From assembly GCA_044356215.1 (NCBI GenBank), contig JBIKWQ010000003.1, positions 953-64,952 on the forward strand: 64,000 nt of DNA. Reading direction: 5' to 3'. Source of the DNA: Bdellovibrionota bacterium (GTDB lineage Bacteria; Bdellovibrionota_C; UBA2361; OMII01). This document shows positions 2,390-7,481 of this stretch, in pieces. Numbering within the stretch: position 1 is the stretch's first letter; every line of letters begins with the position of its first letter. The translations under genes and the position numbers were made by a program. The notes under the pieces were generated by a model, which was not told the DNA's origin, did no database searches, and saw nothing but the letters and a program-made list of their open reading frames with translations.

Positions 2390-4582
2390 CTAGGCGTACT
2401 CCATTTCCATCCAAGCGCGCTCTCGTCGATCTCTATCGGGATCCTCAACGATATCCTGTAATATTAAACGCCCGAGTCTCGCGTATATTACATCAATCGT
2501 GGCGTTTTTTCCGTCTAGATGGAGTGGATCAAGGAAATCCGGATGGAATCTAAGCATATGATCCATTACCGCTCGATCGTGCTCTGATTTGGCGATCATA
2601 GCCCAAACGTTCTTTCCTACCCAGGCAAAATCCGCTGAATTCCAATCTAGCATCCGTTGAACGTAGTGTCCGATAGAGAGCAATTCCTCTGGAGCTGGTG
2701 GGCGCTCGAATTGATACGTTCCCTGGCTATTACGCATCCTATCAGCTATCCAAACCAAGTTATTAACCAACTGAGGAAGACAGTGTTTAGAGAGTACGCG
2801 CCTCTCAAGGGTTGAATCTAGGTAGCTCATCCGCATCGGATGAACACGTCGTAAGAATGCATCATCTAGTCTGCGATTGAAGTTTTTGGTGAAAATCACC
2901 AGAAGATTATCTACGTTACAGTCTATCGGAGGACGAGATTCCAACCAGATTCGGGCATCTTGGATCGGTCCTAGAAAGAACGTATCGATATGACCATCTA
3001 CTTTATCGATCTCATCTATTAGTAAGATCACCGGCTGATTCTGAGATTTCAAAAAGGCTCGCGACAGGATTCCAAGATTCATCAACTTCTCTTTGGCTTG
3101 CGTCTCCTGGCCCGCCATCGATGACGCGATCGCCAAAGCTGAGGGAACCTCGATCAGATGCGCAGTGTTCATCCCATTGTAACAGCTAAGACACATCAAC
3201 TCCGCGCCCGTCGCTTTAGCCAGGCATTTCGCCAAAAAGCTCTTACCGCAACCAGAGGGTCCCTCAAGGAGGATCGCTCGTACCCTGTCAGATGGAGATG
3301 TTAAAAGTAACGACATCTGAGTAGCTGTAAAGCGCGCGCATTGATATCCAACCGCGGCCAATCGCCGAGACATCTCCTCTGGATCAGAGAACTGAGTGAG
3401 CCCTATCTTTTCGGGCTTATAGGCTCTCCCGCGACGCTTCGCGTCTGGATCATCAATCACACCCTCTAACAGCCACCGACCTAAGCGGGCATAGATCTGC
3501 TCAATCGTCGCGTTTCTGTTGTCTGGCACCAATGGATCGGTGAAATCAGGATGATAACGCAGAAGCTGCTCAAAGACTGTGCGGTCATGCTCAGACTTTG
3601 CCAACATATAGAAGAGATTCTTCCCTACGAAGGCGTAATCGATCAGATCCCAGCTTAAAAGATGTGTTAAATAATGTGCCGCTTTTAACAACTCCTCAGG
3701 AGCCGGCGGCCGCTCGAAAGGATAGCTACCATCTGAGCCGCGCATTAAATCAGCTACGCGAATGAGATTCTCCGCTAATTTTGGCTTACAGTGCGGCGCT
3801 AAAACTCTGCGCTCTAAAGCGGAATCCATGAACTTCATGCGCAACGGATGCACGCGTCGCAGTAGCGCCTCGTTAATTGGGCGCTCGAAGTTCTTGGTGA
3901 ACATGATTAAAAGATTGTCTAAGTTAGCGTCGATCGCCTCACCAGACTCACGCCAAACTCTACCATCTTGAATCGGCCCCAAGAAAAACGTATCGATCGC
4001 CACATCAACTTTATCTAACTCGTCGATCAGCAATATAACCGGCTTCTGTCGCGACATCGCGAAGGCCTTAGAGATCGGCCCAAGATTCATCAAGTCATCG
4101 ACTTTCTGGTCAGAAGCGCGGCCTGTCATCGCGTTTACCATTCCCAGTGTCGACGGCATCTCGATTAAGTGTTGCAGGTTCATCCCCTTGAAACACTGGA
4201 TACACATCAACTCGGCGCCAGTAATCTTGGCTAACGATTTAGCCATGAAGCTCTTACCGCAACCGGATGGTCCCTCTAACAAGATACACTTAACACTGTT
4301 AACTCTGGTGTTGAGCAACAGCGACATCTGAACAGCGTAAAACGGTAAACAGTGATAGCCGACCTCTCCTAACTTAATCTCAAGCTCCTCAGGGGTTCCA
4401 ACGTCCTTAAATCCGACCTTTTCTGGAGCGTAATTAGAGTGGAAATTGGGGTTAACGATCCCAAGCTCGCTACCATCAGTCTTGGGCTCAAGATCATTAG
4501 CCGCGCCGCGATTACGGAACGTAATCTTGCGTTGTGGGGCTCCTGCGGTGCTTTCAGAGTTGTTGTCGTCTTCTAACGCCAT
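2390..4582 (-). CDS. tandem-duplicated AAA+ ATPase (MoxR/CbbQ/NorQ-like AAA_5 type; two complete ATPase units)
   Basis: 730 aa. Two roughly 365-aa halves are clearly homologous to each other. Each half has a Walker A motif (LLEGPSGCGKSF[ML]AK), a Walker B motif (ILLIDE[LI]DKVD) and a sensor region (NLL[IV][MI]FTKNF). The start is ATG at 4582-4580. Confidence 0.8.
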   Translation of the reverse strand: MALEDDNNSESTAGAPQRKITFRNRGAANDLEPKTDGSELGIVNPNFHSNYAPEKVGFKDVGTPEELEIKLGEVGYHCLPFYAVQMSLLLNTRVNSVKCILLEGPSGCGKSFMAKSLAKITGAELMCIQCFKGMNLQHLIEMPSTLGMVNAMTGRASDQKVDDLMNLGPISKAFAMSRQKPVILLIDELDKVDVAIDTFFLGPIQDGRVWRESGEAIDANLDNLLIMFTKNFERPINEALLRRVHPLRMKFMDSALERRVLAPHCKPKLAENLIRVADLMRGSDGSYPFERPPAPEELLKAAHYLTHLLSWDLIDYAFVGKNLFYMLAKSEHDRTVFEQLLRYHPDFTDPLVPDNRNATIEQIYARLGRWLLEGVIDDPDAKRRGRAYKPEKIGLTQFSDPEEMSRRLAAVGYQCARFTATQMSLLLTSPSDRVRAILLEGPSGCGKSFLAKCLAKATGAELMCLSCYNGMNTAHLIEVPSALAIASSMAGQETQAKEKLMNLGILSRAFLKSQNQPVILLIDEIDKVDGHIDTFFLGPIQDARIWLESRPPIDCNVDNLLVIFTKNFNRRLDDAFLRRVHPMRMSYLDSTLERRVLSKHCLPQLVNNLVWIADRMRNSQGTYQFERPPAPEELLSIGHYVQRMLDWNSADFAWVGKNVWAMIAKSEHDRAVMDHMLRFHPDFLDPLHLDGKNATIDVIYARLGRLILQDIVEDPDRDRRERAWMEMEYA

Positions 4583-4613
4583 AATCTTCTTCTTCAGTCC
4601 CTATATGATGTAA

Positions 4614-4630
4614 GTCCACAATAAGTGGAC
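4614..4630. promoter_or_regulatory. palindrome GTCCAC-N5-GTGGAC 32-48 bp upstream of the ATPase start; candidate operator
   Basis: Perfect 6-bp inverted repeat with a 5-bp spacer, read directly from the sequence. It lies in the promoter region of the minus-strand ATPase gene. Confidence 0.25.
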
Positions 4631-4763
4631 AAATGCTTCTTATTACTTTGCAGGGCGGGATATATATCTGTAATTATTGAACTTATCTTTTAGTTGGCGC
4701 ATAACTACAACTCCCTTTCATTTTAGCTGAAGCGAACAGACTCGTTCTTGAGATGATATCATC

Positions 4764-5108
4764 ATGACTGATAATCCAAATACCGCGCGTACAGACCGCC
4801 CCTACCGTTCTAAGAGAACCCAGAGGGGAGAGGCGGAGCTAATGACCTTTGGTATAGTGGTAGTGCTAGCCATTCTGTTCTCAGGCACCGTTTGGGTTCT
4901 TAATTGGGTCAAGCACAACAAGCACTCAGAGCGCGAAGCGCGAAAGCTTGCCGCTATCCTTGAGAAGAAGAAAAGTCAATTCTCAGGGCGTCGCGACCCC
5001 GCTGAGTATCTAGTCTTCTGCGACAAACCAGCGTGGTCTCTTCTTCAGACTAAATACAACTGCGAAGTCCTTCCAGAATCGTATGGGGAGCTGTTTTTGA
5101 TGCCCTAG
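4764..5108 (+). CDS. small hypothetical membrane protein (one predicted TM helix)
   Basis: 114-aa ORF with a hydrophobic stretch FGIVVVLAILFSGTVWVLNWV. It is followed within a few bp by a GC hairpin (GCTCGG..CCGAGC). I recognised no homology, so the coding status is uncertain. Confidence 0.3.
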   Translation: MTDNPNTARTDRPYRSKRTQRGEAELMTFGIVVVLAILFSGTVWVLNWVKHNKHSEREARKLAAILEKKKSQFSGRRDPAEYLVFCDKPAWSLLQTKYNCEVLPESYGELFLMP

Positions 5109-5202
5109 GCTCGGCTCCGAGCGTCAAAAGCTCGGTATCTCGATGTTTTGTTAGTAACGGCGCGTTCGCGCTGTTACCGATAGGGTGTCGCAGTTCTTTA
5201 TC

Positions 5203-5288
5203 ACCACAGAGGACGCAGAGGACACAGAGAACGGCCATTTTATCGGCAATTATAAGGTTTTCTCTGTGTCCTCTGCGTCCTCTGTGGT
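5203..5288. repeat. perfect 29-bp inverted repeat (ACCACAGAGGACGCAGAGGACACAGAGAA / reverse complement) around a 27-nt loop; large hairpin or cruciform-capable element
   Basis: Arms at 5203-5231 and 5260-5288 are exact reverse complements. No confident CDS overlaps them. A 29-mer inverted repeat is far beyond chance expectation in 64 kb. Confidence 0.6.
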
Positions 5289-5389
5289 AAAAAATATTTT
5301 ACTAATTGTCTCAGCAACTTACCAAAAACACTGCGACGCCCTGTGTTACCGAGCAAATAATCGCTTAGGCGAGGTCTTGCCTCGGCGCT

Positions 5390-5431
5390 AAGGCAAACAT
5401 CGCCGCAGCGATGTTTTGCCTTTCTTTATTC
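5390..5431 (+). terminator. rho-independent terminator (about 13-bp stem, 4-nt loop, then a TCTTTATT U-rich tail)
   Basis: The hairpin is AAGGCAAACATCGC-cgca-GCGATGTTTTGCCTT followed by tttctttatt. On the minus strand it has no U-tail, so it should act in the plus direction. It sits in a region with no confident CDS. Confidence 0.5.
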
Positions 5432-6152
5432 TAGCCCAGAATCTTCGATGCTGCTCTCCGCATTCTCAGCCGCACCCAGAGCCACCGGCGGAGGGGGGTC
5501 CGCAATCGGGACTTGATTCGCTACCGTCCCCTGCTCATGTGGTGTTATCACGACCAACACAATCGGCAGGCACGGTAAGTCCACCAACGCTGTCGCGTTT
5601 CGCTGCTCTACATAATTTGAGATTAACCACTGGAAATCGGGGTCGCCCAGTTCTTGAGAAAAAATAGCTCTAGCCATATATAACGCTCCTCCATGATCGC
5701 CGCGCCGAATCAACTACCTCCAAACGCGACAAGCGCTCACAACGTTTAACCACCTACTCTTCCACTAATCGTCGTTAGGCGGTATTTTGCGACACCAATC
5801 CTTGTGTCATGCGCCAAAAATTTACTTCTAAAACCAGGCTTAGAGGATCCGATCCCGCCGCCTTAAAGAGTTATTCGGCCTCAGTGCCTCCGCACTTAAG
5901 CTATTAGAAGTTCTAGCGGAAAATACCAAAACAGCAGAACCACCTGTAACCATTACACAAAATAGGTAGTATGGAAGATTCCAGTAGATAATAATTCTGC
6001 TTTAACCACGTTTAAATTACCGTGGCGCTGTGGGGCCATTTCTCCACTTTTCCAAGGGATAGATTGCATCAAACACCCCTAACCCTTGAGAAATATCCAT
6101 CAGAACCGTACACTGACCGTCCTCAGAAAAATGCCCTAAATCAAAGAAGTAA

Positions 6153-7481
6153 ATGCCCAGGAAAGATATTGAACCAGCAGTAGAGAGCGGAAACAACAAG
6201 GACCGTAGCTCACCGGCTATTTACGAGGCTGAACAGCATACGATCAAGAAGGGCGATATTGACGAAGATGCCCGCAAGGTTGTTTACCGATTGCAGCGCG
6301 CTGGATTCAAAGCATACATAGTCGGTGGTGGCGTTCGCGACATCCTCCTTGGTAAAACACCCAAAGACTTTGATATCTCAACTGACGCGACTCCGCGGCA
6401 GATAAAAGCTCTTTTTAGAAACTGTCGCATTATCGGTCGCCGCTTTAAATTAGCTCACATATTCTTCGGCAGCGGAAAGATCCTTGAGGTATCAACTTTC
6501 CGCGATACCGCAGATATTCCAGAGCCCGCCGAACCTGATACGAGCGCGGGGACAGTCGCGACTCCGATGGTTACAAACGATAATATTTACGGGACTGAGC
6601 AGACCGATGCCTTACGCAGAGATCTAACGATAAACGGTCTATTTCTTGATGTATCGACGATGCAGATCATTGATTACGTTGATGGGATGCTGGATCTACA
6701 ACAGGGAACTATTCGAATCATCGGCGACCCAGACCTTAGGTTTAGCGAAGATCCTGTTCGTATGCTCCGCGCTGTTCGACACTCCGCTAGAAATGGATTT
6801 CACATCGAGCCTGGTTGCTGGTCCTCTATCTTGAGGAACTCTCAATTGATCGCGCAGTGCTCACAGGTGCGCGTATTTGATGAGCTACGCAAAGATGTAA
6901 GCTCCGGATGTTTCTTAACGATCCTCTCGCTGCTTGGGGAAACAGGTCTACTTGAGTACATCCTACCCGAGCTATTAGAGAACAATAGTCGCTTACTTTC
7001 CGCTGAAAGTGATTGTAGCGTTTGTCTCGAAAAGGTCGATGATTTAGTGAATGAGGGCGGAGAGGTTTCAGCTACCACCGTCTTCGCTATTTTAGCGATG
7101 TTCATTGCGGGGGATTCGATCTGGCTGCGTGACCTTGCTGAATCTATTCCTAGCGCGCCTGATCTCGGTCAGAGATTAGGCGCGTGCTTCACACGGCTAA
7201 CAGTGCCGCGCAAAGAGCGTGAGCGGATTCAGATCCTATTAAGTATGTGGGGACGACTGCGAGATGCGTCTCCGAAATCTTTCAAGCCTGGCTCCTACAA
7301 GCGCTCGGCCCTTCTGCCCGACTTAATATCACTAGTCGAGATTACCCAGTTTACTCGAGAGGATTCCCAGAGACTGAACTTGTTAAAGGAGATGGCCGAT
7401 AGAGAATCGGATCAGCATAATCATTCCGAATACGAACGGAAATCAACCCCGGCAAGACGTAGGCAAAGCGGACCTAGATAG
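6153..7481 (+). CDS. pcnB: poly(A) polymerase I (class II nucleotidyltransferase)
   Basis: It carries the [17 protein letters not shown] nucleotidyltransferase motif and the PcnB-diagnostic [20 protein letters not shown] segment. The length is 442 aa. Confidence 0.8.

Follow-up and report, generated by a model that had tools for sequence, protein, structure and literature searches.

The 1.57-kb interval (positions 4583-6152) that separates the genes for an AAA+ ATPase and for PcnB in a 64,000-nucleotide stretch of contig JBIKWQ010000003.1 from a Bdellovibrionota bacterium (hereinafter, the window) is, very probably, ordinary gene-dense DNA that has received one recent transposon insertion. 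Two small genes, coding for proteins of 114 and 83 amino acids (aa), converge here on a 317-nt spacer which, together with the divergent promoter regions 4583-4763 and 5678-6152, makes up the noncoding remainder of the interval and which contains a miniature inverted-repeat transposable element (MITE) and a predicted intrinsic terminator (Table 1). An earlier examination of these letters without database searches (hereinafter, the sequence-only reading) had seen no convincing gene in the interval and had proposed a small RNA of 200-250 nt ending near position 5431 or, alternatively, a decayed element. What looked like a small-RNA locus is a variable spot into which a MITE has inserted; the second proposal came close in wording, in that a mobile element is indeed present, in the form of a non-autonomous MITE. 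All four hairpins described in that reading (5109-5122, 5157-5180, 5203-5288 and 5390-5431) were recovered from the sequence, the predicted folds and a terminator scan, and three features had been missed, namely a hairpin at 5362-5387, an outer inverted repeat and the direct repeat TGTTACCGA. All components of the locus (the gene pair, the MITE and the predicted terminator) are of known kinds, so that the locus as such is of modest interest; a hairpin module that is embedded in the MITE and recurs in other phyla appears worth follow-up.

A recent MITE insertion in the spacer

The element at 5181-5343 is bounded by terminal repeats that are complementary at 12 of 14 positions (family consensus YAGGGCGTCGCAGT), forming the outer inverted repeat 5182-5194 / 5330-5342, and is flanked by two copies of the target duplication TGTTACCGA that match in the window at 9 of 9 positions. 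Its interior is dominated by a perfect 29-bp inverted repeat (5203-5231 / 5260-5288, with a 28-nt loop; -63.2 kcal/mol, z = -12.6), the arms of which consist of tandem 9-nt units (CAGAGGACG / CAGAGGACA / CAGAGAACG). These arms contain no stop codon in any frame because one of them lacks T and the other lacks A; the element has no coding capacity, and only chance open reading frames (ORFs) read through it.

Comparison with the closest relatives reveals the insertion directly. Four loci (L005-L008; here and below, loci compared with the window are denoted by L numbers), in which the 83-aa protein is 87% identical, align with the window over both gene ends and all small hairpins, lack exactly positions 5181-5352 (172 bp) and retain a single copy of the target, that is, they represent the empty site. 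A metagenome scan with the left end of the element and the start of the arm identified 17 stretches carrying the MITE, including ten full copies of 154-163 bp, each surrounded by unrelated sequence and sharing 85-94% identity with the window copy. Duplications of 9 bp, with 8 or 9 of the 9 positions matching, are present in seven of the eight copies for which both flanks are readable, including the window copy; examples from other copies are GAGAATCAT (9/9) and the pair TATTGGTGG vs TATTGGCGG. Within the 64-kb window, the arm occurs at two places only, no shuffle of the window produced it twice, and further copies were not detected, be it of the arm, of the terminal repeat or of the element as a whole, so that the MITE count there is one. 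By the logic of the sequence-only reading, membership of the 29-bp arm in a repeat family with no transcript would have counted against a small RNA, and the first half of this scenario is what we observe: a dispersed family with copies in metagenomes. Contigs L001 and L002 as well as many of L126-L142 break at or near the MITE because repeats break assemblies. The MITE family accordingly serves as a marker of recent transposition in an uncultured lineage and explains the breaks of metagenome assemblies at this locus.

All MITE copies carry the hairpin, and most base substitutions among them affect the loop. Outside the search pattern, the left arm is invariant in 10 copies; the right arm varies mostly through deletions of 9-nt units in two copies, yielding a variability of 0.083 vs 0.079 for the loop. 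Two points detract from this picture: one copy (L137) shows a flank match of 5 bp only, and the left end of the family was fixed by the search pattern, such that the apparent conservation of this end is biased. The element at 5181-5343 is a MITE by definition. In two of the copies, an IS4-like element that encodes a 450-aa DDE_Tnp_1 transposase resides inside the hairpin arm (L142, positions 1-1533; L129, positions 1-110), following GAGGAC in one copy and GCGTCC in the other, with the end CAATGCCACTTACTAAC. We considered the IS4-like element of L142 as a parent of the MITE and rejected it given that the ends differ.

The most probable history of this locus is as follows. In the ancestor of the lineage, some 145 nt separated the two stop codons, with a few hairpins including the predicted plus-strand terminator 5390-5431. 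The MITE then entered the 3' side of hairpin 5157-5180, duplicating the 9-bp target and bringing the 29-bp inverted repeat and the outer inverted repeat into the spacer; for this mobilization, a transposase encoded elsewhere must have acted on the element. As a result, the predicted 3' untranslated region of the 114-aa transcript now includes the hairpin, which, if transcribed, would form a 29-bp double-stranded RNA stem, a likely substrate of RNase III or a block to exonucleases.

Two small conserved genes and their neighborhood

The statement that this interval holds no convincing gene does not stand. The ORFs at 4764-5108 and 5426-5677 were both called as genes on independent metagenome contigs (L001 and L002 in the case of the 83-aa gene) and have homologs in 52 and 12 clusters, respectively. 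Identity ranges from 45 to 85% for the 114-aa protein, with 14 invariant alignment columns, and from 44 to 96% for the 83-aa protein, with 23 such columns. Against the orthologs in L003 and L005, the 114-aa gene has a ratio of nonsynonymous to synonymous substitution rates (dN/dS) of 0.07 and the 83-aa gene one of 0.07-0.11, with synonymous sites near saturation. Both genes are under strong purifying selection.

The 114-aa protein contains a QRGEAE motif, the GE.E part of which is invariant, and a C-terminal part with two invariant cysteines; in its AlphaFold model (mean pLDDT 68.9), a single long membrane-type helix, residues 18-70, is the only confident portion. The 83-aa protein (mean pLDDT 57.2) is conserved over residues 1-48 and ends in a proline-rich, acidic tail. 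Both models are too weak for a fold search. Searches of Pfam, NCBIfam and PADLOC yielded no match for either protein, and PADLOC and NCBIfam had none for the neighboring protein of 1054 aa.

The gene order pcnB, 83-aa gene, 114-aa gene, 730-aa AAA ATPase, ~1052-aa protein is retained in seven relatives (loci L003, L005, L144, L145, L147 and L254, and a 134-kb contig) and is also found in a 39-kb contig. The small genes are lineage-restricted and converging; on its outer side, the 114-aa gene has a divergent promoter region in common with the AAA ATPase gene, and the 83-aa gene has one in common with pcnB. Annotation by eye would overlook these two small conserved genes. The five-gene cluster includes 2390-4582 and 1-2381 of the window, both on the minus strand, and 3929-9294 of L003.

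A hairpin module shared with other phyla

The arms of the internal hairpin are not confined to the MITE. A search of species-representative genomes with the pattern CAGAGGACNCAGAGGACNCAGAG produced at least 117 stretches; the hosts among the matches listed include Bacteroides, Nostoc, Microcoleus, Planctomycetota, Acidobacteriota and Gemmatimonadota, as well as Chloroflexota, Burkholderiales, Bdellovibrionota and Sorangium. The 27-29-nt arm is nearly identical in at least eight phyla (among them Bacteroidota, Cyanobacteriota, Planctomycetota, Acidobacteriota, Gemmatimonadota, Chloroflexota and Proteobacteria) and in phage contigs, with a varying number of 9-nt units. Among the genome matches listed, ~42% are accompanied by an inverted partner no more than 300 nt away, and ACCA, GCCA or ACCG is the beginning of 63%; a few pattern matches are coding D-A-E repeats in Actinobacteria. 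The pattern also occurs in 75 viral contigs, vs 19 and 11 for two controls with permuted units, so that part of the raw 75 must be generic tandem repeats, some of them coding. One copy in Bacteroides finegoldii has arms identical to those of the window over 27 nt and is located right after a stop codon, between converging genes. The module is present at 13 and 15 places on two Gemmatirosa megaplasmids and in 11 B. finegoldii records; a search of 5,426 E. coli genomes detected no such hairpin.

Copies of the module are located at 5203-5288 of the window and in loci L009-L125, L143 and L148-L222. Loops and flanks of the copies elsewhere are not shared with the window element. For 63 stand-alone hairpins, there is no target duplication and flank matches are at chance level, and the closing bases covary (A-T in 34, G-C in 27, a mismatch in 2). 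The hairpins mostly lie ~30 nt after a gene end, in tandem (22), convergent (12) or divergent (4) settings. Within 0.6-1.5 kb of ~190 sampled copies, no recurrent protein family was detected, a survey that a single distant gene per genome would escape. The arm sequence was found in no Rfam family, nor in any paper in a bacterial context (sequences within figures not being covered by this search).

Two additional observations pertain to the viral copies. In the phage-like 33.5-kb contig IMGVR_UViG_3300024048_000009 (L163, L191 and L218), hairpins of the CACAGAG type occupy at least 10 gaps between co-directional genes, and nearly every such gap has one, like punctuation. In other viral contigs (L151, L154, L158, L166, L170, L185, L186 and L222), a single arm follows an ATG at a distance of two to four codons, such that its translation would place TTEDTEDTE at the start of phage ORFs, often with a second ATG just after the arm.

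Several candidate affiliations of the module were examined and rejected. A link to PDDEXK_3/GxxExxY genes was suspected because one relative has PDDEXK_3 fragments at the same site as the MITE, and no such ORF was present near the ~190 copies. With regard to the arms being ends of an autonomous insertion sequence, one distant partner arm was found (L125, 554 nt), with no transposase between the arms; the ORFs beside the viral copies contain no transposase domain. An integron attC site is incompatible with a perfect stem that has no extrahelical bases and no RYYYAAC/GTTRRRY cores.

These observations raise the question whether the arm, [A/G]CC[A/G]CAGAGGAC[A/G]CAGAGGAC[A/G]CAGAG, is the module of an undescribed, pan-bacterial class of intergenic hairpins that was captured here by a conventional MITE, a proposition that we regard as rather doubtful. 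Somewhat better placed, and possible if still on the unlikely side, is the view that the hairpin is the functional unit and the MITE its carrier, such that the 27-29-bp stem, similar to those of repetitive extragenic palindromic (REP) and REPIN sequences, would be kept for acting on RNA as an RNase III processing site, a 3' end protector or an insulator, and here would modulate both 3' ends. The formation of intergenic hairpins by the same arms in many phyla and viral contigs, their usual position ~30 nt after a stop codon, their repeated occurrence in the gaps of the 33.5-kb viral contig, the covarying closing bases, and the concentration of substitutions in the loop of the MITE family, next to a left arm that is invariant outside the search pattern, are all compatible with such a role, but the conservation of the arm is also explicable by repair within the palindrome or by recent spread, the relatives manage without the hairpin at this site, and the permuted controls already account for 11-19 viral matches vs 75. 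Distinctly unlikely is a third possibility, that the 29-bp arms are terminal repeats of a second mobile element, a nested mini-element in the shape of a hairpin, which the ancestor of the MITE had acquired. Other genomes do contain similar nested hairpins (e.g., L059 and L026), the number of 9-nt units varies, and the arm is the site of the IS4-like insertion in L142 and L129; against this stand the lack of target duplications beside the 63 stand-alone hairpins, the lack of partner arms flanking a transposase at ~190 loci, and the hairpin already being part of every MITE copy.

The variable spacer and the terminator

Among the relatives, the distance between the two stop codons spans a range of 10 nt to ~1.5 kb. 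In L144 and L145, no more than 10-12 nt separate the genes; L256 has 89 nt, L147 133 nt and L005 147 nt, and L254 has an unrelated spacer of 244 nt. Where the spacer has taken up cargo, this includes a BrnT/BrnA toxin-antitoxin pair (L003), fragments of PDDEXK_3 genes (the 134-kb contig) and an unknown gene (L258). The small hairpins are common to the window and the L005 lineage only, and the lack of spacer conservation beyond this nearest lineage argues against a small-RNA gene.

The terminator stem (5390-5422), with 14 pairs and a single bulge, leads into UUUCUUUAUUC, which extends to position 5431, so that the stop codon of the 83-aa gene (5426-5428) falls inside the U-tract; a 9-bp core of the stem is conserved in L005-L008. 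Most likely, this plus-strand terminator ends the transcript of the 114-aa gene, which had been the fallback in the sequence-only reading and is the assignment that we favor from the sequence because the spacer is variable and the small hairpins are shared only with the L005 lineage. This assignment is weakened by the distance of the terminator from the 114-aa stop codon, 281 nt, or 109 nt when the MITE and the duplication are discounted, and by the weaker lower stem and U-tract in L005. Of the smaller hairpins, that at 5109-5122 is not significant on its own, and its fifth pair, G-C in the window, is T-A in L005, a compensatory change; hairpin 5157-5180 is conserved in L005-L008, with a G-U pair in the window that is G-C there. 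The previously missed hairpin 5362-5387 may help to end the transcript of the 83-aa gene because, on the minus strand, the hairpin (5387-5362) is followed by AUUAUUUG, a weak U-run.

A stand-alone small-RNA gene of ~200-250 nt that ends at the terminator at 5431 and has the hairpins as its structure is highly improbable: a good plus-strand terminator is present, and segment 5100-5440 folds far better than shuffled sequences (z = -12.4), but most of the fold energy is supplied by the 163-nt MITE, which is absent in L005-L008, a consensus scan of 5109-5390 detected no plus-strand sigma-70-like site, L254, L256 and L147 have unrelated spacers, L144 and L145 have almost none, and no Rfam family was matched at gathering scores. 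The Rfam search gave nothing at these scores in the whole window, and relaxing the threshold to E-values of up to 5 recovered, in this region, only models of miRNA precursors, which fit any long hairpin, so that these below-threshold matches are spurious. A weak promoter-like site on the minus strand, TTGGTA-18-TAAAAT (9/12; 5296-5325), lies inside the MITE and is directed towards the 114-aa gene from its 3' side; promoter-like sites are about as numerous in the region as expected by chance.

Flanking genes and promoter regions

The 730-aa ATPase, which reads away from the 114-aa gene, is the left neighbor in all relatives. Its two AAA modules represent an internal duplication, and models of the MadB type and the TRIP13 type match it weakly, the MadB-like NCBIfam match being below the cut-off. 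On the other side, alignments with the relatives show no conserved ORF within 5678-6152. A block at 5747-5807, upstream of the 83-aa gene, is retained in the close relatives, including L003, for which synonymous sites are saturated, and not in the distant ones; it is probably a promoter or operator. We rejected a sigma-54 promoter within this block given the unsuitable GG-to-GC spacing in the sequence. Both hexamers of the promoter-like site upstream of pcnB have been retained in L005 and L003, in which TAAACT is the second one. Two other ORFs, 5185-5391 (68 aa) and 5953-6072 (39 aa), were rejected as genes, having no family match and being located in non-conserved sequence.

Table 1. Features of the interval 4583-6152 and of its flanking genes
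Feature	Position	Strand	Basis
AAA+ ATPase, 730 aa, two tandem AAA modules	2390..4582	-	ORF list; Pfam AAA_5/AAA match twice
Putative divergent promoter region, ATPase / 114-aa gene, 181 nt	4583..4763		Position between diverging conserved genes
114-aa protein gene	4764..5108	+	Homologs, dN/dS, synteny
Small hairpin GCUCG-GCUC-CGAGC, directly 3' of the 114-aa stop codon	5109..5122	+	-7.8 kcal/mol, z = -1.4
10-bp hairpin, 3' half holds the MITE target	5157..5180	+	-16.2 kcal/mol, z = -3.2
Target-site duplication TGTTACCGA, left copy	5172..5180		Read from sequence
MITE, 163 bp, noncoding, in the spacer of the converging genes	5181..5343		Empty site, copies, target-site duplication
Left terminal inverted repeat TAGGGTGTCGCAGT	5181..5194		Pairs with 5330-5343
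Left arm of the 29-bp inverted repeat, three 9-nt CAGAGGACR units	5203..5231		Sequence
Right arm of the 29-bp inverted repeat; loop 5232-5259	5260..5288		Sequence, fold
Right terminal inverted repeat ACTGCGACGCCCTG	5330..5343		Pairs with 5181-5194
Target-site duplication TGTTACCGA, right copy	5344..5352		Read from sequence
Fifth hairpin, beside the terminator	5362..5387		Folds of both strands; partly conserved in L005-L008
Predicted intrinsic terminator, stem 5390-5422, U-rich tail to 5431	5390..5431	+	Terminator scan, folds
83-aa protein gene, ATG at 5677	5426..5677	-	Homologs, dN/dS, gene calls
Putative divergent promoter region, 83-aa gene / pcnB, 475 nt	5678..6152		Alignments with relatives
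Shine-Dalgarno sequence GGAGGAG, 8 nt before the 83-aa ATG	5686..5692	-	Invariant in six relatives
Promoter-like site TTGAGA-17-TACACT, upstream of pcnB	6086..6114	+	Consensus scan
pcnB, poly(A) polymerase I, right neighbor	6153..7481	+	TIGR01942, 309 bits vs cut-off 305.65; Pfam PolyA_pol

Comparison with known systems

Bacterial MITEs include Correia/NEMIS of Neisseria, Nezha of cyanobacteria and RUP of Streptococcus pneumoniae. The element described here resembles such MITEs in being short and noncoding, with terminal inverted repeats and a target duplication of fixed length, in being dispersed in many copies and present or absent between close relatives, in folding into a long hairpin, and in its intergenic or 3' location. 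It differs in that its sequence family is not known to match a described MITE, in that no partner insertion sequence was found for it, and in that its interior contains a perfect 29-bp palindrome, built of 9-nt units, which is present in other phyla outside the MITE as well.

A lead to the transposase is provided by the CAGGG ends and the 9-bp duplication, which suggest the ISAs1 family. In E. coli, CAGGG and CCCTG motifs flank the yhhI gene, the record of which reads 'putative transposase', at positions that fit the ends of an element. The H-repeat element around yhhI we take to be a member of the ISAs1 family. Elements of this family have inverted repeats of 14-22 bp that start with CAGGG and a 10-bp direct repeat (PMC11946415). 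The MITE is similar in its 14-nt repeat beginning with YAGGG and in its 9-bp duplication, and CAGGG is found at one or both ends of most copies, with TAGGG or AAGGG at others. The assignment is tempered by the extent of the match, which covers only the first five or six bases of the MITE ends (CAGGG), and by the several copies that begin with TAGGG or AAGGG. No autonomous element with the MITE ends was found, although no search aimed at an ISAs1 transposase was made in the host.

In common with the shared terminators of converging genes, the predicted terminator at 5390-5431 consists of a G+C-rich stem and a U-run, is located between converging genes and is accompanied by a second hairpin with a weak U-run on the other strand. 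Unlike in such terminators, the U-tract here overlaps the coding end of the opposite gene, and conservation is limited to the nearest lineage.

The closest counterparts of the hairpin module are the REP, REPIN and BIME sequences, with which it shares palindromic, covarying 25-30-nt arms, a high copy number in the genomes of some hosts, a location just 3' of genes and the absence of target duplications. At the locus analyzed here, there is one module copy in the window, and the MITE that carries it has a target duplication. In contrast to REP sequences, which are lineage-specific, the module arms are nearly identical across phyla; furthermore, the module has no GTAG head, is built from a variable number of tandem 9-nt units, and has no RAYT (Y1 transposase) gene within 0.6-1.5 kb of the ~190 sampled copies. 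The sameness of the module across phyla is not what would be expected of REP elements, which are lineage-specific, or of ordinary MITEs and, should the module indeed define a class of its own, would imply a shared trans-acting factor or a mechanism for the mobility or maintenance of small palindromes that has not yet been described.

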